Source: Octopus vulgaris
Taxonomy: Eukaryota
Direction of reading: 5' to 3'
DNA length: 64,000 nucleotides
Assembly (NCBI GenBank): GCA_951406725.2
Contig: OX597814.1
Span: 150,598,001-150,662,000, forward strand
Below the pieces are notes generated by a model. It searched no databases. It was not told the origin of the DNA and worked only from the letters and a program-made list of their open reading frames with translations. The first letter of the stretch is position 1; each line of letters begins with the position of its first letter. Below, one piece after another: positions 8,135 through 45,439 of the stretch. Position numbers and translations under genes: made by a program.

Positions 8135-9118
<984 letters not shown>

Positions 9119-14911: not shown

Positions 14912-14949
<38 letters not shown>

Positions 14950-15047: not shown

Positions 15048-15605
15048 CCCTGTTCGAAGGTTTATAATGGACGCAGGTTGTGAGTCAAATAGCTAGCTTG
15101 AGGCGGTGGCCTCTTGGAGCTAATCAGCGACAGCTTTAGTCTTATATTTATAAGACTGCCATATTAGTATAGCGATAACTATTAATTTCCAGTAACGCTG
15201 CCGTAATCTCCTTTAGAGAGACTTAGTAATTTTAATATTTCTATTATTGAAAACAAGTGGATGTATTCCACTGAAACTAGGTAAATAGATTCTTCGAACA
15301 GGGACAGTCAGTAGCGACACCTGCTGGGTCTGACTACGCTGCATTGATAAAGGGCAAATACCCTGAAACATGTCTGCAGCTGTCTGACTGGCAGGATGAA
15401 GCGGCTGACCTCCCCGTTCGAAGGTTTATAATGGACGCAGGTTGTGTGTCAAATAGCTAGCTTGAGGCGGTGGCCTCTGGGAGCTAATCAGCGACAGCTT
15501 TAGTCTTATATTTATAAGACTGCCATATTAGTATGGCGATAACTATTAATTTCCAGTAACGCTGCTGTAATCTCCTTTAGAGAGACTTAGTAATTTTAAT
15601 ATTTC

Positions 15606-15610
<5 letters not shown>
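15048..15610 (+). mobile_element. Retrozyme-like / non-autonomous PLE: about 1.55 tandem copies of a 364-nt unit with one HHR, flanked by (TA)n
   Basis: ~199-bp direct repeats at 15048-15246 and 15412-15610 with only a few mismatches. HHR lies in the unique part. TA runs on both sides. No ORF. Confidence 0.8.
15338..15380 (+). ncRNA. Minimal type-I hammerhead ribozyme, U3-A8 variant
   Basis: GCUGCA-UUGAUAA-AGGG(CAAAUA)CCCU-GAAACAUGUC-UGCAGC. Perfect 6-bp stem I, 4-bp stem II, palindromic ACAUGU stem III, GUC cleavage triplet. Confidence 0.85.
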
Positions 15611-15642
<32 letters not shown>

Positions 15643-15983
15643 CGTATGTGTATGTAATTTTTTATGTATGTATATTTTTGTTCGTGTGTGTATCGTTGTC
15701 GTTATGTTTGTGTGTCCCCCCTCCATAAACGTTTAATAACCAGTGGTGGTTTGTTTACGTCCTCCGTAACGTAGCACTTCGGCAAATGTGTCTGATGGAA
15801 GAAGACTTCAATACAAATAAATAATTACTGGTGTCGATTTCTTTCGACTAAATCCTTCAGTGTGATAGCCAAGCATGGCCACAGTCTAATGATTGAAACA
15901 ACTGAAAGATAAAGGATAAAATACATACAGAAATGTGCGCACACGCATACTCAGATATCTACATGCTGACACAAACATTTAGA

Positions 15984-16042
<59 letters not shown>

Positions 16043-16067
16043 GCTTTGCCATTCATACATTCATTAT

Positions 16068-16904
16068 TTCTTCCACTCTAGAGGAACAAGGCCTGAAACA
16101 TTTTAGGGAGGGGGCCAGTCGATTAGATCGATCCCAGTACGCAACTGGTACTTAATTTATCGACCCCGAACTGATGAAAGGCAAAGTCGACCTCGTCGGA
16201 ATTTGAGCTCGGAACATAAGACAGACGAAATACTGCTAAGCATTTCGCCCGGCGTGCAAAGGTTTCTTATTTCTTTAATGCCCATAAGGGGTTAAGGAAG
16301 GAAGGAAGCACTCCGTCGGTTACGACGATGAGGGTTCCGGTTGATCCGAATCAACGGAACAGCCTGCTCGTGAAATTAACGTGTAAGTGGCTGGGCACTC
16401 CACAGACACGTGTACCCTTAACGTAGTTCTCGGGGATATTCAGCGTGACACAGAGAGTGACAAGGCCGGCCCTTTGAAATACAGGTACAACAGAAACAGG
16501 AAGTAAGAGTGAGAGAAAGTTGTGGTGAAAGAGTACAGCAGGGATCACCACCATTCCCTGCCGGAGCCTCGTGGAGCTTTTAGGTGTTTTCGCTCAGTAA
16601 ACACTCACAACGCCCGGTCTGGGAATCGAAACCGCGATCCTATGACCGCGAGTCCGCTGCCCTAACCACTGGGCCATTGCGCCTCCATATAAGGGGTTAA
16701 ACATAGAGGAGACAAACAAGGACAGACAAAGAGATTAATCGATTATAACGACTTCCAGTGCATAGCTGGTACTTAGTTTATCGTCCCCAAAAGGATGAAA
16801 AGCAAAGTTGACCTCGGCGGAATTCGAACTCAGAACTTAACGGCAGACGAAATACTGCTAAGCATTTCGCCCGGCGTGCTAACGTTTCTGCCAGCTCGCC
16901 GCCT
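16068..16904 (-). mobile_element. SINE family B tandem pair, interrupted by SINE C
   Basis: Sense strand aaggcggcgagctggcag...gagttcgaattccgccgaggtc...ctttcatcct...cgataaa...aagtaccag; homologous to 56252-56661. Confidence 0.85.
16296..16686 (-). mobile_element. SINE family C, young full-length copy with 12-bp TSD
   Basis: tRNA-like head ggaggcgcaatggcccagtggttagggc...ggtttcgattccc; (CTTC)n tail; TSD ATAAGGGGTTAA at 16284-16295 and 16689-16700. Confidence 0.92.
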
Positions 16905-17133
16905 TTACATACTTTCGTTATTAACGAAAAGAACTCCAATATGCGTGTATATGTATACACACACGTACACACACGCACGTATATTTTGTTGAGAAAGCGC
17001 TTAAACTTTAAGGCAATAATACATTTAGGAACGGCATGAATGTCACAATTCTCACCTTCAACAGAAACAAAAATGTATGTCTTCATATTCATTAATATGC
17101 AATAACTAATTCAGATATTTTTAAAATATCGCT

Positions 17134-17341
17134 TACGAGTGGGTGCTTTGGGTAAAAGAAAATACAGGAATATCAATTAATTGTGATTTAATTCAACATA
17201 TTTCCCTCTCAGTTTTATACAATTATTGCGGTGTTCCTTCAGTTTTTCTAAGCCCTGTAAAAAAAAAACTCAGAAAGTCGGGCCTCCAGTCAGGCCTTTC
17301 ACGACACCCTTAAAGCCAGGATCTTTTCAGCACCCCCTCGT
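17134..17341. mobile_element. Mariner-type MITE
   Basis: Ends acgagtgggtgct / agcaccccctcgt; homologous along its length to 61136-61351. Confidence 0.65.
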
Positions 17342-17857
17342 GCATCCCTGATCTTCTTAAGAAGTGCATGTGTGCTGCTACACCGAATTCCTGAATTCAT
17401 CTTTTAAGAAAAGTAAGAAGTCTTATATTTCATATGTATTATGAGATACAAAATACACAATTAACATACCAAATATTTCTTAGTATGTAGTTAATGATTG
17501 TTGAAAAGGCATGACGAATACAGATTCCTATTCATAGTAAACCATACAAAGAAACAGCTTAGGTCAGGTTTCATGTCAACTTAAAAAAAAAAAAATGCGG
17601 TCGACTTTTGTTGGAACCGTTTACGCAAGTGTTGATAATATTCCTGAGAAAGGAATGTACCCCACAACACAGCATTAAGCGTACGAGAAACTCTGTCTAA
17701 GTAGTCCACATCCATGCTGTCGTCGTTGTTGATGTCGAGTCGATCGTTAATGCGAACACGATCTTACTATAACTAAGTTGTTTATCTATCTTTCTATCTA
17801 CTTAGTTATCGCTCTATGTATCAATAATTTAGTGTGTTGTCTGCTCGTGTGTGTGTG

Positions 17858-17892
<35 letters not shown>

Positions 17893-18090
17893 GTGTTTGT
17901 GTGTGTTTGTGTATGTGTGTGTGTGTGTGTGTGCATGTTTGCATGTGTGAATGTACACACGTGCACACATTCATAAACACATAACTAACTCGCATATATA
18001 TATATACATACCTACTTACATATAGACACACGTAGCACGTAGGCGGGAAACTTCATAAATCTATCAGTCCTTCTCTTTCCATTTATATAC

Positions 18091-18145
<55 letters not shown>

Positions 18146-18156
18146 GAAAGAAAGTG

Positions 18157-18214
<58 letters not shown>

Positions 18215-18491
18215 ACAGACAGACAGACAGAAAATATATGCTATTTGTGTATTTCGTTTATCATTCTGGATTTCTCGTAGTGAATGGTTGTATATTGTTA
18301 CTACCATGGTATGGACGTGTTTGTGATAATTTGCTCACATTGAATAAGTTAGTGAAAAAAAAAAGAAGATAAAAATAAAGCTAGAGGCACTAAATATACA
18401 CCAACCGAGCTGATAATAGCAATGAGTAAATAGTAATATATGTGTGTAAGTATGTATATATAATATATATACAAATATAAGTGTGCGTTTG

Positions 18492-18538
<47 letters not shown>

Positions 18539-19116
18539 ATATGTATGTGTGTTTGTATTCATTTCTAACTTAATGGGAATATAGTATATCTGCGTGAGAA
18601 CCGCCCAGCTTTTAACAACACATTCTAAACCATCTGTATAAATTTCATTCATATAGACAAACCGTGCTTTAGTTAAACGACACATATACGCGTCTATAAA
18701 CACATGCGGATAATATGATTTATTAATCTCATCGGCACACACCCTCATGCACACAGCGAAAGCCCGCGTTTAAGGAAGTATGTGAAAATGAAAGGACGAA
18801 CATGCAACAGAGTAGGAGAGATAATAAAGAAAGAGGTGGATTCTTCAGACACCGGTGGATTTGCTAGTCTTATTCGTCGACTTTAAAAAAAAGCCCTCTC
18901 TTACCTTTGGACATAGTCATTAAAAGTTACTGAAAAAGTACAAAAAGCGAAAGACTGTCACATCAGACTGGAATGCGCTCAAAGAATGGGTGAGTAAAAA
19001 TCTAACGTTTACATATATCGAACTGACTTAATTCTGTCAACCTATCTATTTCGTCTTGTTTTATCTTACACACGCACACACACACACGCAAACGTACGCA
19101 TACATATATATGTCTA

Positions 19117-19150
<34 letters not shown>

Positions 19151-19184
19151 GAACAGACAGACAGATAGATAGATAGATAGATAG

Positions 19185-19231
<47 letters not shown>

Positions 19232-19543
19232 CAGAATAAAGTTTGTTGCCGGTTTATTTATATCGGTATGTGTTATTGCAAATGAGCATTCACGAACATA
19301 CGTATATCCATACACACGCTTTCTACACACTTATATATGTATACGAACATATACATACATATATATACACAACCACATACATATGTATATGTATACACGC
19401 ATATATATATTTTTAACGCGCGCGCACACACACACACATACATGTTTGTCCCATTTTGTATTTATATATATACATATATATATATTCGCATACACACATA
19501 AAGATGCATACGTGCACGCTCAGAACACATGTAGGCATACATA

Positions 19544-19583
<40 letters not shown>

Positions 19584-20085
19584 TGTGTGTGTGCGTGCAT
19601 GTGTGTAACTATTCATTCAGAAAGAATTCTCAAGGTAATACGTTTCTCAGCACTTGTAAAGTTTTTGACACCAAATATAAACAAATATTAAGCATTACAA
19701 ACGCCATCGTCGAATCGCAATAATACCACTAATTAGAGACACTTTGGTATATCCCGAGTGGTGTAGTAACAGACCTCAGTGAGTCTGGGACTGTATCGTC
19801 TTCATTTTTATTTTATTCAAACCAGTAAACGATGATGTGCGAAAGGTTTGACTGCGATTTCTAGCAGGGTGACTGATCGTATAAAAGATTCTTCTGCGTT
19901 AACCTAGAAAATGTTTGTTCTCGTGCGTGTATTCATTTTTTTTTCTTATTTTTTTTTAATATCATACCTTTTTCCTTCCCTGCTCATTCGATACCTCAAC
20001 TAAATGAAATCATTATCATCATCATCATCATCATCGTCATTATTATTATTATTGTTATTATCATTATTATTATTATCATTATTAT

Positions 20086-20134
<49 letters not shown>

Positions 20135-20310
20135 GAGACGGCGAGCTTGCGTCATTTCGTCCGTCTTCACGTTCTGAGTTCAAATTCCGCCTTCCATCCT
20201 TTTCGGGTCGATTAAAAAAGTACCAGTTGAGTACTGGGGTCGATGAGATCGACTATCCCCCTTTGTGCCTATAATAGAAAGGATAATAATAATAATAATA
20301 ATAATAATAA

Positions 20311-20344
<34 letters not shown>

Positions 20345-21255
20345 CATTATTATTATGATTATTCCTGATAGTGGTTTTAAATTCCGGCACAGCGCTAGTA
20401 GTGTTTGAGGGGAGGGATAAGCCGATTACATCGACCCCCAGTAATTGATTGGTCCGAAAGGATCAAAGGCAAGGTCGATCTCGGTGTAATTTGAACTCAG
20501 AACATAATGACGCTAAACATATTTTACACAGCGTGCTAGCGATTCTGCCAGCTCTCCACCTTATCATTACTAATAATGAAGCGGTCTGGCAGATTCGTTA
20601 GCGTGTCGGACAAAATGCTTAGTATAATTTCTTCTGGCTTAATGTATGAGTTCAAATTCCCCCAGGAGTTCTACTATGCTTTTCATTCTTTCGTGTTCGA
20701 TAAAATAGGTACCAGTTAAGCACAGGAATCATTGTAATCGACTACGCATGTCCCCATAAAATTTTAAACCCAGTGCCTATAGTAGAAAGGGTTATTATTA
20801 TTACTAAGGTGGCGAAGACGGCGAGCAGGTAGACTCATTAGTACTTCGGGCAAAATGCTTAGCAGCATTTCTGTCGACTTATTAGGTTCTGAGTTCAAAT
20901 TCCGCCGAACTCGACTTTGCCTTTTAGCCTTCCCGGATCGATAAAAATAAATAGCAGCATTGGATTTGATGTAATCGACTTACTCCCTTACCCCGAACTT
21001 ACTGGGCCTTGTATCAAGATTTGAATCGATTTATCATTAAGGCGGCGGACCCGGTAGAAGCGTAAGCGCGTCGGACAAATTGCTTAACGGCATTTCTTTT
21101 GCCTCTGTACGCTCTGTGTTCAAATCCTGCTGCGGTCAACTTTGCCTTTTATCCTATTATGATTTGATAAAATAAAATACCAACCAAGGGGTGCATGTAA
21201 TCAACTTGCCCTCCTCCTCTCAAAATTACTGGTTTTGCATCAAAATTAAAAAGAA
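20135..21255. mobile_element. Cluster of about five SINE B copies in (TAA)n/(TAC)n
   Basis: Repeated gagttcaaattcc...ttt(c)atcc...cgataaaat blocks in both orientations, separated by ATT/AAT runs. Confidence 0.8.
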
Positions 21256-22447
21256 TTATTATTAATTTTATTATTATCATTATTATTATTTCAGTATTAG
21301 TTATTATGAATATTTCTGTATCCTTACATCCTTGAATGAAGTGATTTGTTTGTTCCTTTGTTTGTTTATTTATTCCCTAATTATATTGAAAAAAACACTG
21401 CGTAGTGGTATCAAGTAGCTTCCCATTTAGGAGTGTTCGAATGGCGATCTCAAATTTATGGGCTAATTTCCTGGATTGGGCTACTCGTTGTTTCCTTGAA
21501 ATAAGGCACTTAACTTCACACTACTCCATTCTACTTAACTGAAAATAAATAACACGTGAGTGCTGCTCCAGCTGCCTCAGCCGCCCTCCTCTCACTAGCT
21601 GCCATATACAACTGTGTCACTGGATCAAGGATAAGAGAGAGCCTAGAGGATGTGAATATCTGTTCGCAAATTAACAGAGGGCCTAAAAAAATTAGCGAAA
21701 GCATGGGACATGCTACTAAGCTACGTTATCACTCGCGAGTGACGGCTGGCTATAAATACTGTATTTTACCACTTGGCATTCAGATTGTCAGATGCAATGT
21801 TTATTTATTCACGTTATTTTGAATTAATCATTTATTATCTTATAACTTTGGGATTTCAATAACGAGATTCTTTATTTTCAGAATGACATTGTAGTGTAAA
21901 TGTGAAAGGCTGGATCTGGCCAGTTTAAGCATAAAACAGGTTGACTATTTGAGCCAGATATGACCAGATTAATCGCTAGAGTGAAACTAAATAATTCTTT
22001 TAAATGTGTGTAAGTCCTAAGAGTTTTGGTCATATATTTATCAGTATCTGCTTTAATCATTCTTAAGATACATAATATAGTGGATGGGGATTTCTGTGCT
22101 CGATCGCTATATTCTGGTTATCTCTATTTCCAGATTTTATATCTATTTCAGTTAATCTTCTGCCGATTCCAGTCATTAGACCGCAGTCATGCAAAAGTTA
22201 TAGGTTTCAAAGGACCATATCAACTCGCAGTGTTTCATTTTATTCTTCCACTTATCAAATAACTGTCTTGACAGAAGTATGCACTCACGCATATGCGTAG
22301 GTGGGTGAAAGCATGATTGCGTGTATATATTTGAACAAAAACACACACTCGTGTGTGTGTGTATGTGTAAATATAGGTAATGAAAATGTAAACAGGCGAA
22401 AACTTTTCAAGAAACAACAGCGTAGGGCTCAAGTTATTATATGTATA

Positions 22448-22616
22448 GGCGTAGGAGTGGTTGTGTGGTAAGTAGCTTGCATACCAACCACATGGTTCCG
22501 GGTTCAGTCCTACTGCATGGCATCTTGGGCAAGTGTCTTCTACTATAGCCTCGGGCCGACTAAAGCCTTGTGAATGGATTTGGAAGACGGAAACTGAAAG
22601 AAGCCCGTTGTATGTA

Positions 22617-22661
<45 letters not shown>

Positions 22662-22847
22662 GTGTATATGTTTGTGTGTCTGTGTTTGTCCATCCAACAT
22701 CGCTTGACAACCGATGCTGGTGTGTTTACGTCCCCGTAACTTAGCGGTTCGGCAAAAAGACCGCTAGAATAAGTACTAGGCTTACCAAGAATAAGTCATG
22801 GGATCGATTTGCTCGACTAAAGGCGGTGCTCCAGCATGGCCACAGTC
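22448..22847 (+). mobile_element. SINE family A, full length
   Basis: Same head and body as 3639-4100. Confidence 0.9.
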
Positions 22848-24124
22848 ATGCGTGTATGTTTATAAAACTTATGACGCAGGGCGGTTATTAAGTTTCTCCA
22901 AGTCATCAGATCTGCATGTGTTACCTGTTTCCTATCGCTGCCGAATTTTTTTTCTTATTGAAGTTATTACTGCCCGTCCCGTACAGAATTTTAGGTTCAA
23001 TATGGCTTCTACAATACCTCATAACCCTCTTTGCCCAACAAGTATCTTCTAGAAACTAATCGAGAATAAACTGTCGGATGTCCAAATAGCTCGTTATGTG
23101 TACGTGCGTCAATGTATGCACACGTGTATGTGTGTATGTGTATATATGTATGTATATATGTATGTGTGCGCGTATATATGTATGCATGTGTGAGTATGCA
23201 TGTATCTATGCATGCATGAGTATGTAAGTATGCAGGTATGTGTGTTTGTATGTATGCATGTGAGTATGCATGTAGTGGAGGTGTATGGTCAGTGGTTGGG
23301 ATGTTGCATTTATAATTGTAAGTTTGTGGTTTCGATTCTAGGGCCAAGCGATGCATTGTTTTCTTGAGCAAAATACTTCATTTTACGTTGTTCCAGTCCG
23401 CTCAGATGGCAAAAATGAGTAATCATACGATGGACTGGCATCCTGTCCGGAAAACCGGACTCATGAGCCTAAAGCTGGGGGAAGGGCTTCTTTTGTTTGT
23501 TTTCATGATTGTGTGTATGCATGTGTCTATGCATATCTAACGGACACCTACATTACTTCTCTGAACTAAATTCCAGTCATAGATCCTAAGTTAACACTAA
23601 GTTACAGTCGAAAACATTTACCGCTAGGCCTCGTGTTCGATATGCCTACGTCTTGAGATACTTTGTTAATATTTTCCCCCTTTTAGATACATATCGTTTG
23701 TTGTCTGTAGGAAACAATACATGTACTACCAGACATTTGTTTTCTTGGATATCGTTCATAATAATAGCTGGGTGATCCCCCACCACCACCACTACCATTC
23801 TCACCGCTTTTGTGATTTGGCGTGTTGCAAAGCACGATAACCTTTATCATTTCTTTGAATCCGTTTCAGTTTCCTCATTTTACTATTACTATTTTTTAAC
23901 AATTTTTTTTTATCATGTTGTTATAATTTCATACGGATTCTACTGCTGCTTTCCAAAGGTATGTGTACTATTGTCTTTTGAAGAATGTGCTGTTGTGTTT
24001 GTATGCTATATCTCTTTTGCTCGGTTGAAGAGTTTTTATTAAATGTTTCAGCTCGATTATAGGTTGTTTTTTTTATAGATGTTTCTGTATTAGTGTTTCA
24101 TCAGTTCATTGTGTAGACTTAATT

Positions 24125-24524
24125 CTTTCTATTCTTTTACATGTTACAGTCATTTGACTGCGGCCATGCTGGAGCACCGCCTTTAGTCGAATAAAAAGAA
24201 AGCCCAAACTTATTCTTTGTAAGCCTAGTACTTATTCTATCGGTCTCTTTTGCCGAACCGCTAAGTTACGGGGACGCAAAGACACTAACATCTGTTGACA
24301 AGTGATGGATGGGGGACAAACACAGACTCTCAAATACACACACACACACACGTATATATATGACGGAATTCTTTCAGTTTACGTTTACCAAATCCACTCT
24401 CAAGACTTTGGTTGACTTGAGGACATAGTAGAAGATACTTGCCCTAGGTGCCATGCAGGGGGACTGAACCTGGAACCATGTGGTGTGGAAGCAAGCTTCT
24501 CACCCCCATAGCCACTCCTGCGCC
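24125..24524 (-). mobile_element. SINE family A
   Basis: Reverse complement of the family head and body. Confidence 0.88.
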
Positions 24525-25250
24525 CAATGCTATGTAAGTTTTATTGCTTTGTCGATTGGTGTTTGTACTTCGAGTTTGTTGCGTTAGCTGTGTTTTCGCT
24601 TTTAGTGTTAGCTGATGATTGTGTAGAGTATGTGCTGTGTGGTTTGTGATTGCGTGGTACATAAGTAAAATATATAGAGCTGTGTTGGTTGTCGTTGGTG
24701 TTGTCTGCGATAGATTATAGAGTCGGATGTCGATTATGTAAAAAAAAAATGTGTATGCTATTTAATTTTTATTAACTGGTGATCGTGTTGCGTATATGTT
24801 GAGTGATTTCTGTTGTATTAATGAGTAGTTTATTGTGTTAGAGTTTGTATTATGTGATCTTTGTTATATTAGAGAGTGGGGACTGTATAGAGTATGTGCT
24901 GTGTGGGCTGTGTAATATTAGTGGGTGGTTATTATTTAAGTATGTGTTGCGTAGGTTGTGATGCTATTGGCTGGTTTAATGTGTTGTGTAGGTGTTTTAT
25001 ATTATCGGGTCGTGCTTGTGTGGAACAGTTTTTTCCCAATGTTTTTGCTCTTGAGAGCCGTTGAAATAAATTCCATGTCTAAAGGAGCGCCTACATAAAA
25101 AATTGTTATGTCATATTTAATCTAATTATTCCTTCCTAGAGTTAAATTTCATAGGTGATTAAATAAAATCATAGAATTACATTTGAAATGTTTCAGAAAT
25201 AAAAGTCATAAACAAAAATTTGTTCAAGTTAAATTCCCAATAGAATTTCC

Positions 25251-25671
25251 GGATCTTTTCGGTTTGAACGGCAGTTTTTTGTAACGGTGTCATATGAAGT
25301 TGCCACTCATAATTTGACCCTAGTATCGATCTACTGCATTTCAATCTGTTTTAGAGTTAGGGTTAGGGTTAGGGGTGGGGGGAAGGGTATCTTTTTTTCT
25401 TCAGAAATGTAAATAAACCCAATCTGTTTCTTAAACGAGGGACATATTCATACGGCACAGAATGATTTTTACCTCAATGGACGTAATTGATTGGTTGAAA
25501 TTGCAGAAATTGAAGAAAAAAACAACAAATATCTTACAAACTATAGAATTTTCTCAATAAAGCCAAGAGAAAAAGATGTTTTATAAACACATTCTACCAG
25601 TATACGAAGTTTAAAATTTCTTAGTTACCTAGAAATTATGTTAAAAACTGCCGTCCAAACCGAAAAGATCC
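25251..25671. mobile_element. MITE with 29-bp GG-initiated TIRs and 8-bp TSD (Merlin-like or hAT)
   Basis: TIR GGATCTTTTCGGTTTGAACGGCAGTTTTT with 1 mismatch between ends. TSD GAATTTCC at 25243-25250 and 25672-25679. Confidence 0.9.
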
Positions 25672-26389
25672 GAATTTCCTTATGAAGTAGTTATTTTTTT
25701 TCCTTCATCGTTAATGCTAGCAGTACCCATGGAAATACCACGGTTATTTTGAAAACTGCAAGATGTTTGGAAGTTTATAGAGAACCATGAAAAACATAAC
25801 TTCTCTTAAAATCGCATTTAGTTTAAAAGTGTAAAAGCCCACATAGATAGTATTGAATGTGTAGTTTTAGGCGACAACATCTCTGAAAGCTATATTGTTT
25901 ATAAGAGACTTGTCCTATCTTCTACCCATGAGTTGTTATCTGTCATTTATCTACTAGTTTTCGACAATCTTAAATATAGAATTAAATCGAAAATATAAAC
26001 TGACTGTAATATTATTCTACTACTATACAACTACATAGACAAAACTTTAACAAAACTTAATACACTGTATAACATCCTTATTACCATTTCAGAGGGAAAA
26101 TCGTATGATAAGTCCTATGGCTACTCTCCTGAGCTATATATTCTAAAACCAGAAACGTATCAATAATAAATACGACACGGCTGTACGGTTAAAAGAAAAT
26201 TGCTTCATAACCCTGCAGTTCTGGGTTCCGTTCCACTCTGTAGTAACTTGCGTAATATCTTTCTTATATAACATCGATTTGATTAATACTCTGAATAAAA
26301 TTTGGTTGACAGAAACAGTATAAAAACCTGTTGTGCGTGTGCGTTCGTTAGTGTATGCTCACACACACATCTCACTCTCTCTCTGTATA

Positions 26390-26446
<57 letters not shown>

Positions 26447-27964: not shown

Positions 27965-28056
<92 letters not shown>

Positions 28057-29532: not shown

Positions 29533-29580
<48 letters not shown>

Positions 29581-32899: not shown

Positions 32900-32995
<96 letters not shown>

Positions 32996-33194
32996 GTGTA
33001 TATATATATATATATGTGTATATATATATATATATATATGTATATGTGTATATATATATATATATGTATATGTGTATATATATATATATACGTATATGTA
33101 TATATAAATGTATATATATATGTATATGTATATATATATATATGTATACATATATAAGTATATATATTTATATATTTATATATATATGTATATA

Positions 33195-33226
<32 letters not shown>

Positions 33227-34127
33227 AATATATATATATATATTGATTTCTTGATAGATGGAAGTGCCGTATTCGTTGAAAGAAATGCGATGCATAGTCA
33301 ACTGAGACAATCGAGTAAATAGTAGATAATTATTTTATCGACAAATTCGATAAAAGACAAATTCAATCCATGTAGGATTAAATCTCAGAAGATAAAAGGA
33401 CGTAACAAAATACTGTATTATATTTTTATAACATAAATATTCACGTGGTAAATGTGACATTATACCGTATTTATTTCTATTATTTAATAAGCAGAACACA
33501 TTCTGAGGTGTTTTTCCTTCACCCATCTTGTTGACATTCACAGTCCACATAACGTCTCTCTTTTTTCGAATATACTTCCTCATTCTTCTTCTATCTCTCT
33601 TCTTGCCTATATCTATCTTTATCGCCTCCCATCTTCCTCTCTACTTCACTGCAATAAGCTGGTTATCACAGGAGGCAATCAATATACGGCAACCGAGGTA
33701 TTAGATGTTGATGCAGCGTGGCAGTGGTTCAGGGAATTTGAGCTATGAGTGAAATAGTGCTGCCAGGATTTCTGTTAGCTGGGTCTCAGTTGGTGTGGGG
33801 GACGGGAGTTATCAACCTCGGCTAGAACACCACGGCGCAGGGTTATCATTGCTGAACGACTAGAAACACTCAGAGACCACGGGTAACATCGCTGATGATG
33901 TGTCTAGGTGCACACAAGCTAATGCTTCTGAATATGCAACCGTTTCTCTCTGTGTATGCGTGTGTGTTTGTGAGCGCAAGTGCGCACGCGTGTAAGAGTG
34001 AATAATTTGGTTGAGCAGAGAATATAAATAACACTCAATATATAAATAAATCGTTATCACATCACAAACTACTTTCTGTCATTTAGGTACTCTATATATA
34101 TGATGCGTGTTTTGTATATATAAGTGT

Positions 34128-34201
34128 AGGAGTGGCTGTGTGGTAAAAAGCTTGCTTACCAACCATATGGATTCGGGTTTAGTCCCCCTACGGAGCAGAT
34201 T

Positions 34202-34257
<56 letters not shown>

Positions 34258-34370
34258 CGGGAAGCTTTATGAAAATAGACAAAAGACGAAGGCAGGTGGA
34301 AAACAAACGAACAATTGTATTAGTATGGCGCTCAGGAAATATAAATAAAACAAGTCTTTAACGTTTCGAG

Positions 34371-34460
<90 letters not shown>

Positions 34461-34647
34461 TCCCTCCACTGTCACTTGACAACCGATGTTAGTGTGTTTA
34501 TGTGCCCGTAACTTGGCGGTTCGGCAAAAGAGACCGATAGAATAAGTACTAGGCTTACAAAGAATAAGTCCTGACGTCGATTTGTTCGATTGAAGGCGGT
34601 GCTCCAGCCAGCTTGGCTGCAGTCAAATAACTAATACAAATAAAAGT
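34128..34647 (+). mobile_element. SINE family A interrupted by an HHR element
   Basis: Head at 34128-34195, body at 34455-34647. Confidence 0.8.
34258..34374 (-). mobile_element. 5'-truncated H2-related element inserted in the internal (TA)n of a SINE
   Basis: Sense strand starts at AGGCUC-GAAACGUU-AAAGAC (3' half of the HHR). TA runs on both sides; the SINE head and body flank it. Confidence 0.6.
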
Positions 34648-34877
34648 ATATTTATATAAATTTATATAAGAATATATATCCTTTGAATTTGTTTACGCGA
34701 AACGTTTTGAATATGCAAATAAAGCTCCTATTGCATTATGCTGGTTACAGCCTAATGATGCTGACTGGTGAACCAGTTTTGGAGGTTGCAGCGAGCTGTA
34801 CCGATATAATGCAGGATAAATATAGTAATAATAACGATAATCCTTGGATGGAATATATAAACACTTACTGCATCACA

Positions 34878-35095
34878 ACGCGCGTTTTCACAAGTCACGT
34901 GGATCTTAAGATGACAGTCCGTATACCTGGGATGATAACCGTGTAGTCCTTAGTACCCGTAGGCATCCGATTGATCACCTTTATGGATTCATTTCTTCAG
35001 GCGATATATCTTTAATGGATGTTTACCAGAGGGATGTAATCATCTCAGGAATACGAACTGTGATCTTAAGAGACGTGATTTGTGGAAACGCTCGT
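34878..35095. mobile_element. MITE with ~60-bp imperfect TIRs
   Basis: acgcgcgttttcacaagtcacgtggatcttaagatgacagtccgtat... pairs with ...atacgaactgtgatcttaagagacgtgatttgtggaaacgctcgt. Confidence 0.7.
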
Positions 35096-38000
35096 AATTA
35101 TACATACATACTTACACACGTATATATACGCATACATACATACATACATATATATATACATACATACATACATTTAGATATGTGAGTGTGCTTTTATGCC
35201 TGTATGTTAAACACTCTTAGTTTTGCCAACTGAGTATTAGAACATGCTTCGCCGAGGGGATCTAATAAAATTGAAACATGTCCACTGATATTACTAGCTT
35301 TATCTCTCTAGCTTTGTCTTTAGCGTTTAAACATCCGTACAGATAGGTTTTTTTGACTAATTTCATGGATAATATCAGATCGTCGAAGTTTTCCAACTTA
35401 TTTTATCATAGATATCCGGGCTTTCTTTATATTGATTCCAGATTTAGCAACAGAATGAAACTTTCGACGTGAGGGGTATTACCGACAATAGTAATCCAAG
35501 TAGACTTGGATTAATATTATCCACTTTGAAAGGGTAAAAAATATTTTTGACCCACGCAGGTTTACGCAAGTAAAGTAGTTCAACTCTTGCTTTTTTTTGT
35601 TATCCCTTTATAAAAGCTTCTCTATTTTAGAAAGTGAGAGAGGGGAGAGAGAGAGAAAACGTATATGTGTTGGTGCTTGCGTGTATGGGTACATGTGTGT
35701 TGTGTTGGCAATAATATAAAGTATTACACATAGATATTATTGATATAAAAGCAATTTACTCTCACTGTTGTTGTGTAGCATCTATCATCGGAAGCCAACA
35801 GTTAGGCAAGGACTTAGTGTACCATATACAATGCTAGCCTTCTACAACTTGACACAGATCGGCAGTTGGGTAAATTTCCCCCAGTACTTGACATGCACTA
35901 TAACTTGTCGACTCCGTAGAGATGTAAGTCTAAATTAATCTCAGAGACGTTTCAACTTAGAACACTAAAGACCTGCAACAAATAGCATTTCTTCGATGTT
36001 CAGATAGCATTTGTTCTGAAAATTAGCATCTGTTCGAGGAATTTTATTCCACATTCTAACAAATCTGTCAGTTCATCTGCTTGTAAACTGGTGTAAATGT
36101 ATAGTAACAATTATTTCTTAGTTACCAGACCTCACTATTTGACCTTTTAATACACCTACCTGTTGTGTGGTAGAGTGTGTTTGAATCGCTTCTTGTGTTT
36201 AAAGCATGAGGAGTCAGTGGAACAGTGTTATACTTGTTCGGCCAATGTAACACTTAGAACCATGAAGTTAACAGCCTTCATATCTGCTATAACGCTTGCA
36301 TTATATACTTCAAAGTCATAAAAATTTTCCGTGATGTCGAACGCATAGAATTATCAACACAATTTTCTTCAAACGACACGCTTACCGTCTTATAGAAAGA
36401 TGAGATATAATAAGATAATGTAGTCCTTTGGACGCAATGCATTTTATTATAAATCTACTTAATTAAAATTGACGTAGGATCCAACACTATCACTACCATC
36501 AATGGTAGGGAGTCTGTATGCGGTCATAATAGCAAATCTCATTCGAACTAGACATCGCCATCTTAAAAATTTTATTGAATAATGTAGAGTTGAACAAGGA
36601 AATTGTGGACACAGCCAGAACATTTATCACATGTATGTCACTTCTATAGGAACTACCGGAAGCTAAGTAATATATCTCTGTTTTTGTTCTCCTCACTTGG
36701 TCATATAATCTCAGTTAAATGAAGTTTTTCAACTCACTTTAACACTTAAGTGAAATTCTGCTGTAGATGTATTCAATATGCACAACGCTTTTCCGAGAAA
36801 TTTTCCTACAATCATATTGTTGTTTTTGATATTCAGCGTCAGTACATTCCTTTTATTTCTCTATTTTTAAGTCTTGACAATTGAGTAGAATATGATTCCT
36901 TTGGGAAGGTCTTGCTTTCACCGGTTGGTTTAGAAAGTAGATCCTCTTCCATGCAGCATTTTAAATCCCCCAAAATTTGATCAATGGGTTTTATTAGAGT
37001 TTACTTCCTAACTTGTTTTTTCCATTTTAAACTCTATTAGAGGGAGTTTTGTCGGATAAATACATGGATAATATGAATTAATCAATGTTTTTCAACTTAC
37101 TTCATAATAGGTAGTGCCCTGTTGTATCTATATACAGCTACGTGACTTAACTGTATTTTTCCTGACCGAAAATTTTAATTATCAGTTCAGTTACATCCGA
37201 ATTCTTGTATGGTATTTGCAAAACACTATTACTTATTGATAATGGTGCTATCAACATTCATTGTGCGGTTGTAATAAATTTAGTTTTGTTCCTATAGAAA
37301 AGCCTATAGTACTTTTATCTGGTTATAAAGTATTTCCTGGTTAACGCTAAGAATTTCTTAACTCTTTAAGTTTCATCATTATTACTTAAAGGCTATCATA
37401 CGCTGTCTAGATCTGTTATTGCTTTTGAGTTTCTTTGTTTGCTCATACCTATGTAAAAAGTTCAATTTCCTTCAAGCTAGCTTTCGTCTAGTGCAATATA
37501 GTTATTATTGCTTGGTTGTTTGTAAGATGTTAACTATGCTATTGTCACTAATTACATTTTTCAAATTGTATCGCAGTCAAATTAGAAATCTTGATAATGT
37601 ATATTAGCTTTGCTTCAGTGATCCACATCATTAGTATTTGATTTTTCTAACTGTAATAAGTTGTCTAGGAAAATTAATGTTGAGAGGTTGGTGATAACTG
37701 TAAATTTTAGCTCGAATTCCTTTAAAAGTGATTTTTAAGTCTTTCTTATATTTATATTTTCTGTGCACATTTACATTGTGAGAGACGTATTAGACACGTG
37801 GATTATGCATAATACTATATCTAGAATTTATTTAGTTTCTATCAATTCTAAAATAAAAATCCAATAAGTTCACGTGCCTCAGCTCTTTTACAGAAAAAGA
37901 ACATACTCAAAATTGAATATGTACTTATCACTCAAAACCCATGCTCTGCTGTCGTTACATCGCAAGGAATCTCGAACATACAGTATTACTTGTCATTCTT

Positions 38001-38588
38001 GCTACTGGTAGTACTGTATTTTGACCGGAATTCCTTTGCTTTTGGTGAGCAAATATTTGGAGGCAGATTTTTATAGTTTTATAACATTCGTTAAAATGAA
38101 CTCAAATGTTTTCTGATACTATTGCTGTTGATGTTTAGCCCAGGTCAATAAAGTTTGAGCAGGCCAATGTATTTATCAAAGGCATCACAGCTGTCGACAC
38201 ATATTTTCATGGAGAAATTGGACTACGCGATCTAAAATGTCATTTGTTTAGCGATGACTAGAATTGATATGAAAGAGATTTCGTTGCTATTTCTAGCAGC
38301 TCATCCTCCCCAGCGTTTTTCAATATATATACAGATTTACTAGTAATTATTCCATTGTTATTTAGTAATGCATGTCTTACAAATAGCAAAACACTTAAGC
38401 CTTTTATCTAATTATAGATTGCCTGATGCGTATATTTTGTCACAGTTGCAGAGTAATTTGAGATGACAAGTTTATTTATAGGTTTGAGCGATTAAAGGTT
38501 TGAGACTTTGAGTTATGCCATTATTTACCTCAAGTATATTTATGTTTGACAGTGAATATGTATGTTAATGTTATGTAAATGTGTGTGT

Positions 38589-38625
<37 letters not shown>

Positions 38626-38707
38626 GAGAAAGGGTATTGAAGGATAGAGATAGAGATAGATAGATATGTATTTATATTTTTATGTATGGGTGTATGTATA
38701 AAAGCAC

Positions 38708-39042
38708 AGGCGTGGCTGTGTGGTAAGAAGCTTGCTTCCTAACCACATAGTATTCAGTCCCACTAAGTGGCACCTTGGGCTAGTGTCTTCTACCATAGTC
38801 TCAGGCTGAATAAAGCCTTGTGATTAGTGTGTGTGTGTGTGTGTGTGTGTACCTTTCTTTGTGTCTGTGCTTATAGTTTGACAACTGATAATGGTGTGTT
38901 TACATACCCGTAAATTAGCGGTTCGGCAAAAGTGACAAATGCAGTAAGCATTAGGCTTACAAAGAATAAGTTCTGAGGTCGATTTCGTCGACAGAAAAAC
39001 CCTTTGAGGTGGTGTTCCAGCATGGCCGCAAGTAAAAGAATA
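38708..39042 (+). mobile_element. SINE family A
   Basis: Family head and body. Confidence 0.85.
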
Positions 39043-39192
39043 AATGCAAAATGAATAAACATGTATGCATATATAAATACGCGTACATAAATATACATAC
39101 ACATTATATGTATATGAATTTATATACACACTCATATACTTATATACACTCACACACACAAACACACACACGCACACACACACACGCACACA

Positions 39193-39258
<66 letters not shown>

Positions 39259-39455
39259 GTTAATCCAAACATGAAAACACAACAACGCGAGGACGTGGAA
39301 CGAATATAGTATTATTGGACGCTCAGGAAGGAAGGGAAGAAGGAGGGTTTAACGTTTCGAGCGGAGCTCTTCGTTAGAAACATAGGAAAAGGAAAGATCC
39401 AGAGAAGGGAAGACGGAGGGAAAAAATCGCCAACGGTACACACGCGGTCACATTT
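39259..39455 (-). mobile_element. Family H1 HHR-bearing element in (TA)n; HHR at 39347-39381
   Basis: Near-identical to 3080-3275 with the same ends; core reads CUAACGA; TA runs on both sides. Confidence 0.75.
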
Positions 39456-39457
39456 TG

Positions 39458-39495
<38 letters not shown>

Positions 39496-39497
<2 letters not shown>

Positions 39498-39865
39498 TGG
39501 TGATTCAAAAGTCTCCATTCATAGCAAAAATTTATATTTTTATTAGAAACAGTTTATAAGATCCCCTAGATTCCCTGACCTGACCCCTCTTGATTTCTAT
39601 CTTTGGGGGCATTTGAGAGGCATGGTGTATCGCGGAAAGATAAAAGGCATAAATCATTTCAAGAAACGCATCAGCAACTCATTTGCACACGTATCACCAG
39701 ATGTGCTATTACGAGTTCACAATGAGTGGGATAAACGTATTGCAATGTGTATTTAAAACAATGGTAACCATATAGAGCCTGTTAAATAAAAAAAACTGTT
39801 CTTATAAACTGCTTCTTATAAAAAAATAAATTGTTCCTATATATGGCGACTTTTGAATCACCATA
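39496..39865 (+). mobile_element. Tc1/mariner internal-deletion derivative with both TIRs
   Basis: Imperfect TIRs ggtgattcaaaagtc... / ...gacttttgaatcacc extending ~70 bp. Retains PRFPDLTPLDFYLWGHL...NNGNHIE. TA flanks. Confidence 0.85.
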
Positions 39866-39911
39866 TATATGTGTGTATGTGTGTGTGAGTGTTTGTGCGC
39901 ATGTATGTGTG

Positions 39912-39949
<38 letters not shown>

Positions 39950-39950
<1 letters not shown>

Positions 39951-40148
39951 TAGCCGCCATGACCAACCGCTAGCTAGTAAAGCTTTTTTATTCTCTCTCT
40001 GTTTATTTTTATGTTCCTTTCTGTTGAAGAGCGTAGGCTCGAAACATTAAAGACTTTCCTACCTTCCCGAGCGTTAAACTAATACACCTGTTTGTTGTTT
40101 ATACACCCATATGCGTTTTTTGTTTTATTTTTTGTAAATTCCAACTAT
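39950..40148 (+). mobile_element. HHR-bearing element family H2; HHR at 40017-40052
   Basis: CUUU-CUGUUGA-A-GAGC(GUAG)GCUC-GAAACAU-U-AAAG. Homologous to 51060-51262. The 3' end runs into a TA-rich tract. Confidence 0.65.
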
Positions 40149-40316
40149 ATTATATACATATATATATTGTGTCTGGGGCGAGTCATTCTATTTCAATGCT
40201 TCACCGGTTCGATTTCCCCTCTTTCTATTTATTTTTTTCTAAAATTTTTGTTCCTTCTTGCAACTTCTTCAATAGCCGTTGACTCTATCCGTTACCGGAG
40301 ATGCGTGCATGTTTAA

Positions 40317-40349
<33 letters not shown>

Positions 40350-41711
40350 TGTATGTATGTATGTATGTATGTATGTATGTATGTATGTACGTATGCGTGT
40401 ATGCATGCGTACATATGTGTTTCCCTGTGTGTACGTTTGTATGTATGTCTTCTGCATATTCATGTGTTTGTGTGTTCCTATTTGAGTGTTTGAATGTGTG
40501 TGCGTGTGTGGGTGGGTGTGTACCTCTGTCTCCATGTGTGTGCATGTTTGAGTGTGTCTATGTGTATGGATTTGTGTGATTATGTACGTGCGTCTGTTAT
40601 GTAGGGATGGGTGTCTCCATAAGTGTCCTTGTGTATGTGTGTATGGAGTGTGCGTGTGTGTGTATGGTCATGTGATTCAGTAGCCTTTTGTGTAAGTATT
40701 TGTGCTTGTGTGTGTGTGCTTGTCTGGCCGTATTACCTACGTACCTATATATCTACTTACCCATCTGTTTACTTACATATCCATTTAGCTACTAATTTGT
40801 TTCCTTTATTGTAAAAAATATTCTTTGAATATTTATTGTTCGACTCTTAAATCTCTTTAGTTTTACTCTGTCTCTTTCTCCCTCTACTCTAACTCTATCA
40901 CTTTCTCCACTTTTACTCTCTGTTTCCGCCATTGCTTGCCTCTCTTGTACTTTTCTCTTCTATCTCTGTCTCCCTTTATTTCTGTGTTCTCTCTTTCTGT
41001 CCTCCTCTTTCCCTCTTATTCTATCTTTTCTCTATTCTTACCCTCTATTTCAACCTTTGCGTACCTCCCTTGTACTTTTCTCTTCTCTTTCTTTCACTCT
41101 GTTTTTCCACTCCCTCTTCTCCTTCTTTCTCTGTATCGCATTCTTTCTCTCCATATATACTTCTTCTATCCTACCACGTGACAGGTGTCCAGTGAAGGTG
41201 GTGTACTTCTTTTTCGCCCTGTCTTTTATTAGATTGGTCATGCTGGTCTGGGGTCCTGCTACGTCCATTAGGACTCCATTTCACACTGAGCTACCCCACT
41301 AAATTCGTTTGATAGCTGCAAAGCTCTCTCTGTTGTATTTCTGGTATTTGTATAATTATTTTCTTTTCTTCTTCTGTATATTGCCATAAGTGTTCCTGTA
41401 GTTATATATACAAAATTCTTCGTCTGTAGTATTTCTATAACGTTTTGTTTGTCTCTGTCTCAGTATACCTTTGCTAATTTTTCCAAGTAGCTTAATAACA
41501 GCACTGGCGCATCCAGGATTGAGTGGTCTCAATGTTAATGGCGCGAGACCACGATGATATTTTGGTTCATTGACTAACGAGGAAAACTCAGCTGCGAATA
41601 TTCCGTGTATCGTATCTCTGTCTATATTCCCCGTTCGTTAAGTTTTCGTCTAGTTTCCCGTTTGCTCTGCTTCCGTCTAACTTTTTCTCTTTGTTGTGTC
41701 AATGTTCGACC

Positions 41712-41774
<63 letters not shown>

Positions 41775-42710
41775 TATATGCATACATGTATGTACATAAC
41801 TACATATAAACATATATATGTATATATGCATGCATATTTGGGTACTGGACATCAAAAAGACGTGGACAGAATGAGAAAGGGGAACATAAAAATCCAAAAC
41901 ATAGAAAACGAATTTTTCCGAACAATGAATAAAACAAACAAACAAACAAACAAACAGAGAAACGAGACATGCTACGTAAAGAACATTCCCTTCATGAATT
42001 GTCCCTTGTTTTATCTACTCCTCGCTTCGAAGGTGAGGGCAAGACGCGACTTCGTTAAAACAGTCCTTCCTGCAAAGCAAATTAAATAAAATTTGGGATT
42101 TTTTGTGGAGGGTGAAAGTGGTAACAAAAACAGGACAGTGGGAACAAAACAGTAAAAACAAACAGTGAGGGCTGTTAAGTCAAAACAGTGTGAAGTGTTG
42201 AACGCTTGGAAAAACGAGCTTTGAGAAGAGACAGATAAAAGCACGTCTTGTCTTTAGGAGGGAAATGGAAGAAAGAGACAATGGCCGTTGGTCACGTGTG
42301 AGCAACGAGAGAATCAACGAGAAAGAGTAAGAGAGAGAGAAGGAACAGTGAAGGAGAGAGGAGGAGAAGGGGTGGAAGAGAAAAACAGAAAGGATGAAGA
42401 ACAAGAGAGAGAGGTAGATAGACAGAAAAGAGATAGAATAAGAGTGCACATCGTAATTATTAAGATAAGACTTATTTGGAAAAGGATGCGTTGCATTCGA
42501 TCATATAATAATATAAATAATATATAAATATATGAATATATACATACATATATGCACATACCTACATATATATGTAGATATACATGCATATATGGGTACA
42601 GGACATCAAAAAGACGTGAACAGAATGAAAAACGGGTACATAAAAACAAAATATAGAAAACGAACTTCTTTCGAACAACGAAAAAACGGAGAAACGAGAC
42701 ATGCAACATG

Positions 42711-42793
<83 letters not shown>

Positions 42794-43636
42794 TTATGTA
42801 TGTATGTATGTATGTATTTATGCATGTATGTATATATCTATATATCTATCTGTATTATATATATATATATACATATACAAGTCACACACCCATATAGAGA
42901 GAGAAGGGTACAGTATATATTGAAATGTTGGCTTGCCCATTTATATTCCGTTACGGGATCTTATATACCCAATTATTTGTATACTTTCTATAGTCAATAT
43001 ACAGAAAAAACTTATAATTCTACTTACAAATTTACAATCGCAACTGTTTCCTTATTGGTGCAGAATTCCTTATTTTATGCTCCATAATATTTGGAACATT
43101 CAACATCTAAAATCTAAATGTGTGTAGAGAGTGAACTGTTTGTGTTTTAGAAGCCGCATTGGTTTCACGCAAAATTTTTTTCTTACATCTTCCATTGTAT
43201 TCCATTAGACAGTATAAGCCTATTATATGCAAAGTAGCAAAACAAGATAATGTAGAAGAACATAATGGATTACATAAAAGAACTATGACTTCTACTGATG
43301 TGTAGTATCCATTTGAAAGTGGACTGTAAGAAAACTTTAGCTCACACACAGCGGCTTAAATTGTATTGATCAGTCACAGTTTCAGCGAAAATCCTCGCTA
43401 ACATATAAATAAGTGGAGATATGGCATTTCCGAGACCAAGATGCTTTCTTTTTTGTTTCCAAATTTCCACATCACAGTGTTTGTGTATACTTACCTGCAA
43501 ACACACAAATAAACACACATACACACACAGAGGCACATTCGCACACACACACACACATACACACACATACAAATACACACACAGACACACATTCACATTC
43601 AGACAGAGACACATTTTTGCACACACACAACCCACA

Positions 43637-43686
<50 letters not shown>

Positions 43687-43763
43687 TAATATGAGGGAAT
43701 ATTATTCCAAAGTTACAGGGAGAAATTCAATTTAGATGTACTAAATCAAATTTCACAGAGTAT

Positions 43764-43800
<37 letters not shown>

Positions 43801-43813
43801 TATATATATATAA

Positions 43814-44084
43814 ATTAGAAAAAAAAACAACTTTTATCTATTCAATAATGAAACAATTAAATTATACCATTTAGAAAAATTACATCTTATAGAAAGATTA
43901 AATATAAGATAAAACATATATGAATGATTAAGTAATGTACAAAATAATAAATACTTATTCATTACATATTCATTGGCATACCTTTTATCTTATATTTAAT
44001 CTTTCTAGAAGATGTAATTTTTCTAAATGGTATAATTTAATTGTTTCATTATTGAATTGATAAAAGGTGTTTTTGTTTTCTAAT
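43814..44084. repeat. Foldback with ~100-bp inverted arms in TA-rich context
   Basis: 43814-43914 is the reverse complement of 43983-44084 with few mismatches; spacer ~70 bp. Confidence 0.85.
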
Positions 44085-44170
44085 ATAATATGATATATAT
44101 ATATATCTGTACACACACACACACACACACACACACATAATTAATAATAATAGATGAAAAATGTGTTAAT

Positions 44171-44239
44171 CCACTACAGCTGTTTCGAACGAGTTTTTAA
44201 TTCTATGACCGGTGTACTATTCATAGGATCATGAAGTGG
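44171..44239 (-). ncRNA. Degenerate hammerhead motif, inverted partner of 44286-44373
   Basis: CCAC-UUCAUGA-...-AAAAACUCGUUC-GAAACAGCUGUA-GUGG. The 3' half is nearly identical to the plus-strand copy; the core has decayed (G5->C). Confidence 0.5.
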
Positions 44240-44285
44240 CACAAACTGTTGGCTTTTGAATATTTTTAAATGTTGTTATTCATAT

Positions 44286-44373
44286 ATTCACCTGATGAAA
44301 ACGGTTTTTTTTTCTGGTGATGTAATTTTTATAGCAATCAATTAAAAACTCGTTGGAAACAGCTGTAGTTGAG
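44286..44373 (+). ncRNA. Hammerhead motif with canonical core and extended stem II
   Basis: CUGAUGA at 44292-44298; AACG-G-UUUUU...AAAAA-CU-CGUU stem II; GAAAC-AGCU-GUA at 44356-44367. Stem I is imperfect. Confidence 0.65.
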
Positions 44374-44667
44374 TGATACATTATCCATCTGTTGTTATTG
44401 ATTTATTAATTATTCACACGAAACCTGCTCCTTGCGGAAATCCTAATTATATCATGGACCACACATTTGGTGCAATGTGCGTTTCCTGAATTAGCCTTAG
44501 GGCTCATGATATACTCAGTCGGGTACAGTTAATCGTGTACATAACCTGAGCATCTTTTCGCCTGTAATTCGAAACCCTACATTTTTTGTGTACGCATTTT
44601 ATTTTCCGACTTGTCCAGGTGCCTTATTTAAGTGCATGATACACACGAATCTTGACATTTTATATAC

Positions 44668-44800
44668 ACTAACAGAAAGACCGCCCTCACGGCGGTTTTA
44701 AACCTGGAGTGTGTATGTGTGTATTTATATTACAGAGACAGCGTTTGTGTCTATATAAGAGACACGGTGTGAGTGTGTGTTTATGTATGTGTGCAAACAA
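44668..44800 (-). mobile_element. Possible non-autonomous Helitron 3' end
   Basis: Minus strand ACCGCC-GTGAG-GGCGGT hairpin 7 nt before TTAGT (CTAG-like terminus). 5' end not identified. Confidence 0.4.
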
Positions 44801-45222
44801 TGAATGAAATAAACATGAAATGAAAAAATCGTATGAATAAATCGTGCACCGAATATTTAAATTTGTGAACTTGAAATATTCAATAATAAAAGATAGTTTA
44901 GAAAGTAAATATTCTTGAAAACTTCAATTTATAAAAACATCTCACTTGGATAGTAAATATTTCTTTCACTAATTTATCGTAGCTGCAATATATCTGTAAT
45001 TTAAACAAAGCTCAATCTTTAGCGGGCTAGAAATAGCAGCGATCACATATTATTGTAAAGCTTATAGCATCCCGTACAGTCATACCAACGAAATCATTTC
45101 TGAGTTTTGGGGGTTTTTTTTTAAAATTATAGCAGTATATTAAAAAAAATTCATTTCATTAAAAACAAGCCTCATAGTTATACAGCTATTTTGTCTAATA
45201 GCATTCATTCATTCAATAAATA

Positions 45223-45270
<48 letters not shown>

Positions 45271-45389
45271 CGGAGATGTACTCGCATAGAAGTAATTTGA
45301 TCTGAGATCGTGTGCTGAAACGAAAACAATTGCAGCGTGGAAGGTGTTTATAAGCCATTTAAGAAACACACTCCAACATTTAAGTTTAA

Positions 45390-45439
45390 TTTGTCAAAAT
45401 ATTTTCGTCGCTAAAATCCGCGACCTGTTCACTGACAAA
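45390..45439 (-). ncRNA. Minimal type-I hammerhead fold, G3-C8 variant, in a short element (~45270-45455) abutting (TA)n
   Basis: UUUGUCA-GUGAACA-G-GUCGC(GGAUUUUA)GCGAC-GAAA-AUAUU-U-UGACAAA. Perfect 7-bp stem I, 5-bp stem II, palindromic AAUAUU. Confidence 0.7.

Follow-up and report, generated by a model that had tools for sequence, protein, structure and literature searches.

Can a hammerhead ribozyme be kept for self-cleavage once the C3-G8 pair of its core has been exchanged for another Watson-Crick pair? The question is raised by a 64,000-nucleotide stretch of Octopus vulgaris DNA (contig OX597814.1; G000:C1:150598001-150662000 of a 2.8-Gb animal genome), hereafter the window, in which an initial annotation had noted hammerhead cores with C-G, U-A and G-C at positions 3 and 8 and had read them as a sign of selection on the catalytic fold. 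We find that one of them, site B, represents a large family of minimal type I hammerheads with a G3-C8 pair, carried by a Penelope-like element (PLE). Its comparison with sister families makes it probable, as far as sequences can tell, that site B still cleaves and is kept for cleavage.

Hammerhead folds at sites A and B

Inspection of the sequence places all three core heptamers where the initial annotation had located them, and the stems of sites A and B are as it described. Site A has the core UUGAUAA (15344-15350), GAAA at 15365-15368 and C17 at 15374, enclosed by a stem I of 6 bp (15338-15343/15375-15380), a stem II of 4 bp and a palindromic stem III (ACAUGU) with no extra nucleotide. Site B, on the minus strand, has the core GUGAACA (45432-45426) followed by one extra G (45425) between positions 9 and 10.1, a stem I of 7 bp (45439-45433/45396-45390), a stem II of 5 bp, a palindromic stem III (AAUAUU) and U17 at 45397, after which the cut is predicted. 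Only the statement that every version of the pair is represented was too strong: A3-U8 is a fourth possible pair, and the CUGAUGA heptamer at 44292, put forward as the C3-G8 example, belongs to a broken copy of an old family (site C, below).

A descriptor unconstrained at positions 3 and 8, applied to the whole window, gave sites A and B only and did not retrieve site C. In 40 block-wise dinucleotide shuffles, no match combined a stem I of at least 6 bp with a stem II of at least 4 bp, and a loose setting of the descriptor gave 0.1 Watson-Crick matches per shuffle. In the predicted fold of site B, stems I and II have pair probabilities of 0.74-1.0, and the three-way junction with stems I, II and A15.1-U16.1 is present. 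U4, G5, A6, A9, GAAA and the NUH site are canonical, and the 3-8 pair is Watson-Crick (G3-C8); in place of the literal CUGANGA core the site reads GUGAACA, which is fixed in the family. Site B also shows the hallmarks of PLE minimal hammerheads, namely a short palindromic stem III, the extra nucleotide between 9 and 10.1, and G10.1-C11.1.

Family B and its Penelope-like element

The initial annotation had proposed to check whether the exchanged pairs are fixed in genome-wide families, and at both sites they proved to be family states. Family B counts 1,887 pattern matches, of which the first 100 comprise 98 G3-C8, one U3-C8 and one G3-A8; a second subfamily with another loop II has 743 matches, with 97 G3-C8 and one each of G3-U8, A3-C8 and G3-G8 among the first 100 (15 of these rows form one tandem array). 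Neither set of 100 rows contains C3-G8. Among the copies with a 9-nt loop that lack G3 (n=94), 85 retain C8, all ten C3 copies have C8, none is C3-G8 and A3-U8 occurs in just two isolated copies; these non-G3 copies are single decay changes away from G3-C8. In contigs from four public runs (four studies with four coded organism labels, informative on DNA differences only and not on expression), the differences reaching at least 5% cluster in loop II and none falls on position 3 or 8; the search of sequencing runs listed no RNA run among those on record. G3-C8 is the family state of B and not a private mutation, and the case in which a CUGANGA consensus would have turned the window copies into private mutants did not materialize. 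In B, U4, G5, A6, G12-A14, A15.1-U16.1 and H17 are all canonical.

The family B hammerhead is part of the pseudo-long terminal repeat (pseudo-LTR) of a PLE that encodes a reverse transcriptase (RT) and a GIY-YIG endonuclease. The RT/endonuclease piece exists in many copies that are 97-99% identical and have open frames, the longest frame seen has 1025 amino acids (aa), and its GIY-YIG domain (PF01541) scores above the Pfam cut-off. The matched piece of the open reading frame (ORF) is followed, at a distance of 1.10-1.28 kb, by a sense G3-C8 motif in 30 of 30 fetched loci. Inverted 5' copies are frequent, as are head-to-head pairs and (TA)n ends; the pseudo-LTR that holds site B (Table 1) is shorter than other B copies through internal deletion. 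Among named proteins, the B protein has its best relative in Octopus vulgaris, and a metagenome scan with the B RT piece gave one weak locus. At L159:1602-6420 (G000:C2:17.908-17.913 Mb), we observed a retrozyme- or satellite-like tandem array derived from the family B pseudo-LTR, with 30 units of ~166 bp that read GUGAACA in 30/30.

The 3-8 pair in sister families

Two further families, D and E, are sisters of B. Family D is present in the window, where the motif at 9482-9443 (minus strand) is the intact C3-G8 counterpart of site B; in its PLE frame (Table 1), RVT_1 scores E=0.0014, below the cut-off, and a whole-frame Pfam search gave no match. With 3,947 matches, C3-G8 in 97 of the first 100, it is the most numerous young PLE and the most numerous sister family seen. 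Family E, found in the flanks, has 1,959 matches, with U3-A8 in 92 of the first 100, and its hammerheads stand at one or both ends of decayed RT plus endonuclease frames. In family E (e.g. L163, L174), position 8 is invariant while C3-A8 occurs, and the C3-A8 copies are possibly an amplified sub-lineage with an unpaired core. The RTs of B and D are identical at 267/440 positions, those of B and E at 47-52% and those of D and E at 56-61%, and the three group at 92/94 support in an RT tree that held no named reference PLEs. Judged from these comparisons, C3-G8 (D), G3-C8 (B) and U3-A8 (E) form a sister series within related PLEs.

An unguided alignment of five rows (two B, two D, one E) brings the cores and stem II into register; all cells of the 3-8 pair and of stem II are paired (30/30), and three of the six pairs change on both sides: 3-8 (C-G, G-C, U-A), 10.3-11.3 and 10.4-11.4. 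The covariation score was reached by 1/500 shuffles and the number of pairs changed on both sides was matched by 45/500. MAFFT could not place family A with B, D and E, and behind GAAA it shifted E by two nucleotides; the comparison of stems I and III was therefore made by hand and not with the pair-count tool, and pairs 2.2-1.2, 2.3-1.3 and 15.2-16.2 proved likewise changed on both sides. None of the eleven pairs breaks, and in their stems the three hammerheads differ solely by pair-preserving changes. It is this series that speaks for selection: with the 3-8 pair held as G-C, C-G and U-A in sister families, the self-cutting fold has likely been kept by selection. The selection argument was originally made for sites A, B and C, which are not homologous and belong to three separate repeat families; their co-occurrence in one window therefore shows no covariation, and we reject it as such. 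Carried over to B, D and E the argument stands, weakened by the C9 of family D and the C3-A8 of family E.

A number of observations weigh against the view that site B cleaves and is kept for it. The AAUAUU duplex of site B is predicted to be very weak (-0.2 kcal/mol; -4.6 kcal/mol for the ACAUGU palindrome of site A), and in the monomer G3 is predicted to pair with U17 (probability 0.66). The descriptor through which families D and E initially came to notice required pairing; in a rerun across 985 kb of fetched DNA with positions 3, 8 and 9 unconstrained, a Watson-Crick combination dominated at 3-8 in 12 of 13 groups, several of which are variants of B and E. Only three families are compared, the five alignment rows are not independent, and the RT tree does not resolve the branching order within B, D and E. 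The B subfamilies differ mainly in loop II, with no compensatory stem changes among themselves, and the uniformity of young copies reflects recent amplification, not selection. Non-canonical cores can spread, as the 8/100 family E rows with C3-A8 indicate. A9 is a conserved base of the hammerhead core, and of 100 family D rows 91 have C9, 7 have A9 and 2 have U9; older-looking D copies keep A9. Family D would represent a natural A9C variant or else a family that flourishes although its ribozyme is crippled. In an artificial construct, activity fell at least 20-fold upon an A9U change, which a working natural ribozyme nevertheless has (PMC10085705). Finally, in vitro insertion of the lizard element Poseidon was not impaired by mutations in its hammerhead, and the ribozyme cut only in the presence of protein (PMC11167929).

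The alternative that best survives these points is that the PLE protein or host factors use the fold as a binding or folding signal and that it is retained for this, with no useful cutting left, G3-C8 being a structural relic. The fixation of C9 in the larger family D, the very weak stem III duplex and the unimpaired insertion of the lizard catalytic mutants all suit such a signal, as do the report that no RNA ends were seen at the cut site of the lizard element (PMC11167929) and the low in vitro activity of PLE hammerheads (PMC4209133). We nevertheless regard it as unlikely, if still worth serious attention: the 3-8 contact belongs to the active conformation, in which alone C3-G8 forms (PMC3884650), each of three families keeps it paired by a different combination, and the other core positions are canonical in B. 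The 3-8 pair is confined to the active fold, and for that reason the existence of a natural G3-C8 family speaks for selection on this fold and not on its hairpins alone.

A second alternative, that G3-C8 arose by two chance changes in one unselected master copy and was multiplied by retrotransposition, appears distinctly improbable. All G3-C8 copies do come from one closely related group whose subfamilies differ mainly in loop II, one-third of the outcomes are complementary by simple arithmetic if both letters change, and the odd cores of D and E did spread; it does not explain why all six variable pairs of B, D and E change on both sides with none broken, or why G3-C8 has persisted across at least three subfamilies that differ in loop II. 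That the sites are chance look-alikes in repetitive DNA can practically be set aside, since, for all that the window has 22 CUGANGA heptamers (that of site C included), nearly all foldless, that the site C copy does not fold as a hammerhead and that Rfam gives no gathering-level match, this reading is refuted for A and B by the empty strict shuffles, the family counts, the fixed position in PLE pseudo-LTRs and the presence of all published PLE hammerhead hallmarks.

If family B is kept for cleavage, its RNA would cut after U17, slowly, as a dimer or with the help of the element's protein, and two pseudo-LTR copies on a tandem transcript would pair via the AAUAUU palindrome to form stem III. 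In the double hammerhead model, each core of the dimer cuts the partner's strand. Selection on cleavage would be real but weak, so that unpaired or odd cores spread for a time and the 3-8 pair is restored over the long run. Two transversions separate G3-C8 from C-G, with no wobble intermediate on the way; the master copy would have passed through an unpaired state before it was re-paired. Meanwhile, as a speculation, RNA with a damaged core might have been cut by the intact core of its partner, since a dimer that cuts in trans could still process it. U17 rather than C17 fits this picture because C17 reportedly gave a G3-C8 variant lower activity than G17 did, with data not shown there (PMC3884650). 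A bolder version, which we put forward tentatively and would not bet on, holds that with family B a natural G3-C8 hammerhead is met for the first time as a fixed state in an animal genome, that thousands of copies of a PLE that moved recently carry it in active form, that it makes up with its C3-G8 and U3-A8 sisters a natural 3-8 series in one retrotransposon clade, and that the dimeric design would have let the lineage cross a two-transversion valley closed to single ribozymes.

Hammerheads are nearly universal in PLEs, yet they cut slowly in vitro, and one in vitro system did not need them for insertion. Site B shares with the PLE minimal hammerheads (min-HHR) of Cervera and de la Pena 2014 (PMC4209133) the type I topology, the location in the pseudo-LTR, the short palindromic stem III, the extra nucleotide at 9/10.1, G10.1-C11.1, the predominance of solo truncated copies and the head-to-head pairs. 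In 44 rows of their alignment (56 according to its legend), only C3-G8 and U3-A8 occur, with neither G3-C8 nor C9 and no cephalopod, and G3-C8 is also absent from the accessible text (PMC4209133). U3-A8 itself is published for PLE hammerheads, with about 1,300 matches in Schistosoma mansoni (PMC4209133), and natural U3-A8 core variants, likewise a compensatory 3-8 change, were described by Perreault et al. 2011 (PMC3088659); the accessible part of that paper describes U3-A8 only, whereas family B has G3-C8. The swap found in family B has been made in the laboratory: in the lizard PLE hammerhead, C3G and G8C each abolish cleavage and the double mutant partly restores it (PMC11167929), and in a complete double-mutant scan C3G/G8C was the only strong rescue in the motif (PMC9901934). 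In family B, by contrast, thousands of genomic copies carry it naturally. In the searchable literature we found no natural G3-C8; several key papers and supplements lay outside it, so that absence from print is not established. New here are the scale (>2,600 copies), the fixation through subfamilies, the proven link to a PLE and the homologous sisters with the other two pairs.

The frames of B and D share with the Neptune/Nematis-type endonuclease-positive (EN+) PLEs of Craig et al. 2021 (PMC8557442) a C-terminal GIY-YIG domain and a CX2-5CxxC linker, and the elements share (TA)n targets, an inverted 5'-truncated copy beside the upstream pseudo-LTR and a hammerhead near the 3' end. The linker suggests that B and D are of this type. 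The Neptune/Nematis descriptors used CUGANGA and would not retrieve family B (PMC8557442). The expectation that searches requiring this core miss such families is borne out, and Rfam does no better: at gathering score it gave no hammerhead match in four loci, and none is among the 150 of 270 window matches listed, the top ones being microsatellites against microRNA models. The motifs of this genome that CUGANGA searches and Rfam overlook number at least 2,630 for B and about 2,000 for E and A together. A ready panel of short RNAs is at hand in B with G3-C8, D with C3-G8 and either A9 or C9, and E with U3-A8.

Family A, site C and other repeats

Family A has 73 exact pattern matches, 70 of them U3-A8, two U3-G8 and one C3-A8; U3-A8 is its family state, and site A is of the published U3-A8 kind, probably in another PLE clade. 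Its pseudo-LTR is contiguous with broken PLE-type RT frames in L010, L011, L086 and L087, which belong to one C29 array only, and these frames gave no Pfam match and no GIY-YIG was seen. Their identity to the RTs of B, D and E is 20-23%, and a protein search with the family A RT piece gave two matches with no clade name. From these frames, the tie of family A to a PLE ORF appears weaker than that of family B. In the array itself (G000:C29:29.56-29.69 Mb), the family A element recurs at ~8.9-kb spacing, and its broken RT frame ends in an Asn-rich tract, with no endonuclease seen before the pseudo-LTR.

Site C is a decayed, dead copy of an old C3-G8 hammerhead family. It sits in a repeat with an inverted 5' part (44139-44403), for which there were 551 first-look candidates and whose best other copies are 76-83% identical. 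In 20 aligned copies, C3-G8 is found in 16/20, GAAA in 20/20 and A17 in 19/20, the stem III palindrome has 8 nt and the layout is that of a long-loop-II hammerhead, with A10.1-G11.1 mismatched in 16/20. The window copy has C-U at pair 2.3-1.3 and A-G at 10.1-11.1, loses stem I after two pairs and prefers another fold. A plain chance heptamer is ruled out by the stems that the family alignment shows, and an intact hammerhead by the broken stem I and the other fold. Other C3-G8 type I families were observed at L081:4005(+), L085:4495(-), L085:582(-), L062 and L033, with stem III palindromes of 8-12 nt and A17 or C17; some have a loop II of 40-60 nt, beyond usual descriptors.

Table 1. Hammerhead motifs, pseudo-LTRs and the PLE frame located in the window
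Feature	Position	Strand	Basis or remark
Family D hammerhead, 3' pseudo-LTR, C3-G8 with C9 (CUGAUGC)	9443..9482	-	descriptor, genome counts
Family D PLE frame, 1245 aa, RT and C-terminal GIY-YIG-type endonuclease	10203..13940	-	ORF, tree
Family D hammerhead, truncated third copy	14030-14063	-	
Family D hammerhead, inverted 5' pseudo-LTR, one stem III change	14700..14739	+	
Partial tandem of family A pseudo-LTR	15048..15611	+	364-bp unit, 200-bp direct repeat
Site A: family A minimal type I hammerhead, U3-A8	15338..15380	+	descriptor, fold
Site C: decayed long-loop-II C3-G8 hammerhead-like motif	44286..44373	+	family alignment, fold
Solo 5'-truncated family B pseudo-LTR	45270..45453	-	ends at (TA)n tract
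Site B: family B minimal type I hammerhead, G3-C8	45390..45439	-	descriptor, fold, genome counts

At the 5' end of the D element (13854-14915), the 3' region is present a second time, along with a perfect inverted repeat of 210 bp, a layout typical of inverted/tandem PLE arrangements. Elsewhere in the window, two short forward-strand frames look like pieces of a long interspersed nuclear element endonuclease (6925-7305) and of a DDE transposase (8145-8555). A 46-nt repeat occurs in two copies (16222-16267 and 16844-16889), which we take to resemble an octopus short interspersed nuclear element (SINE).

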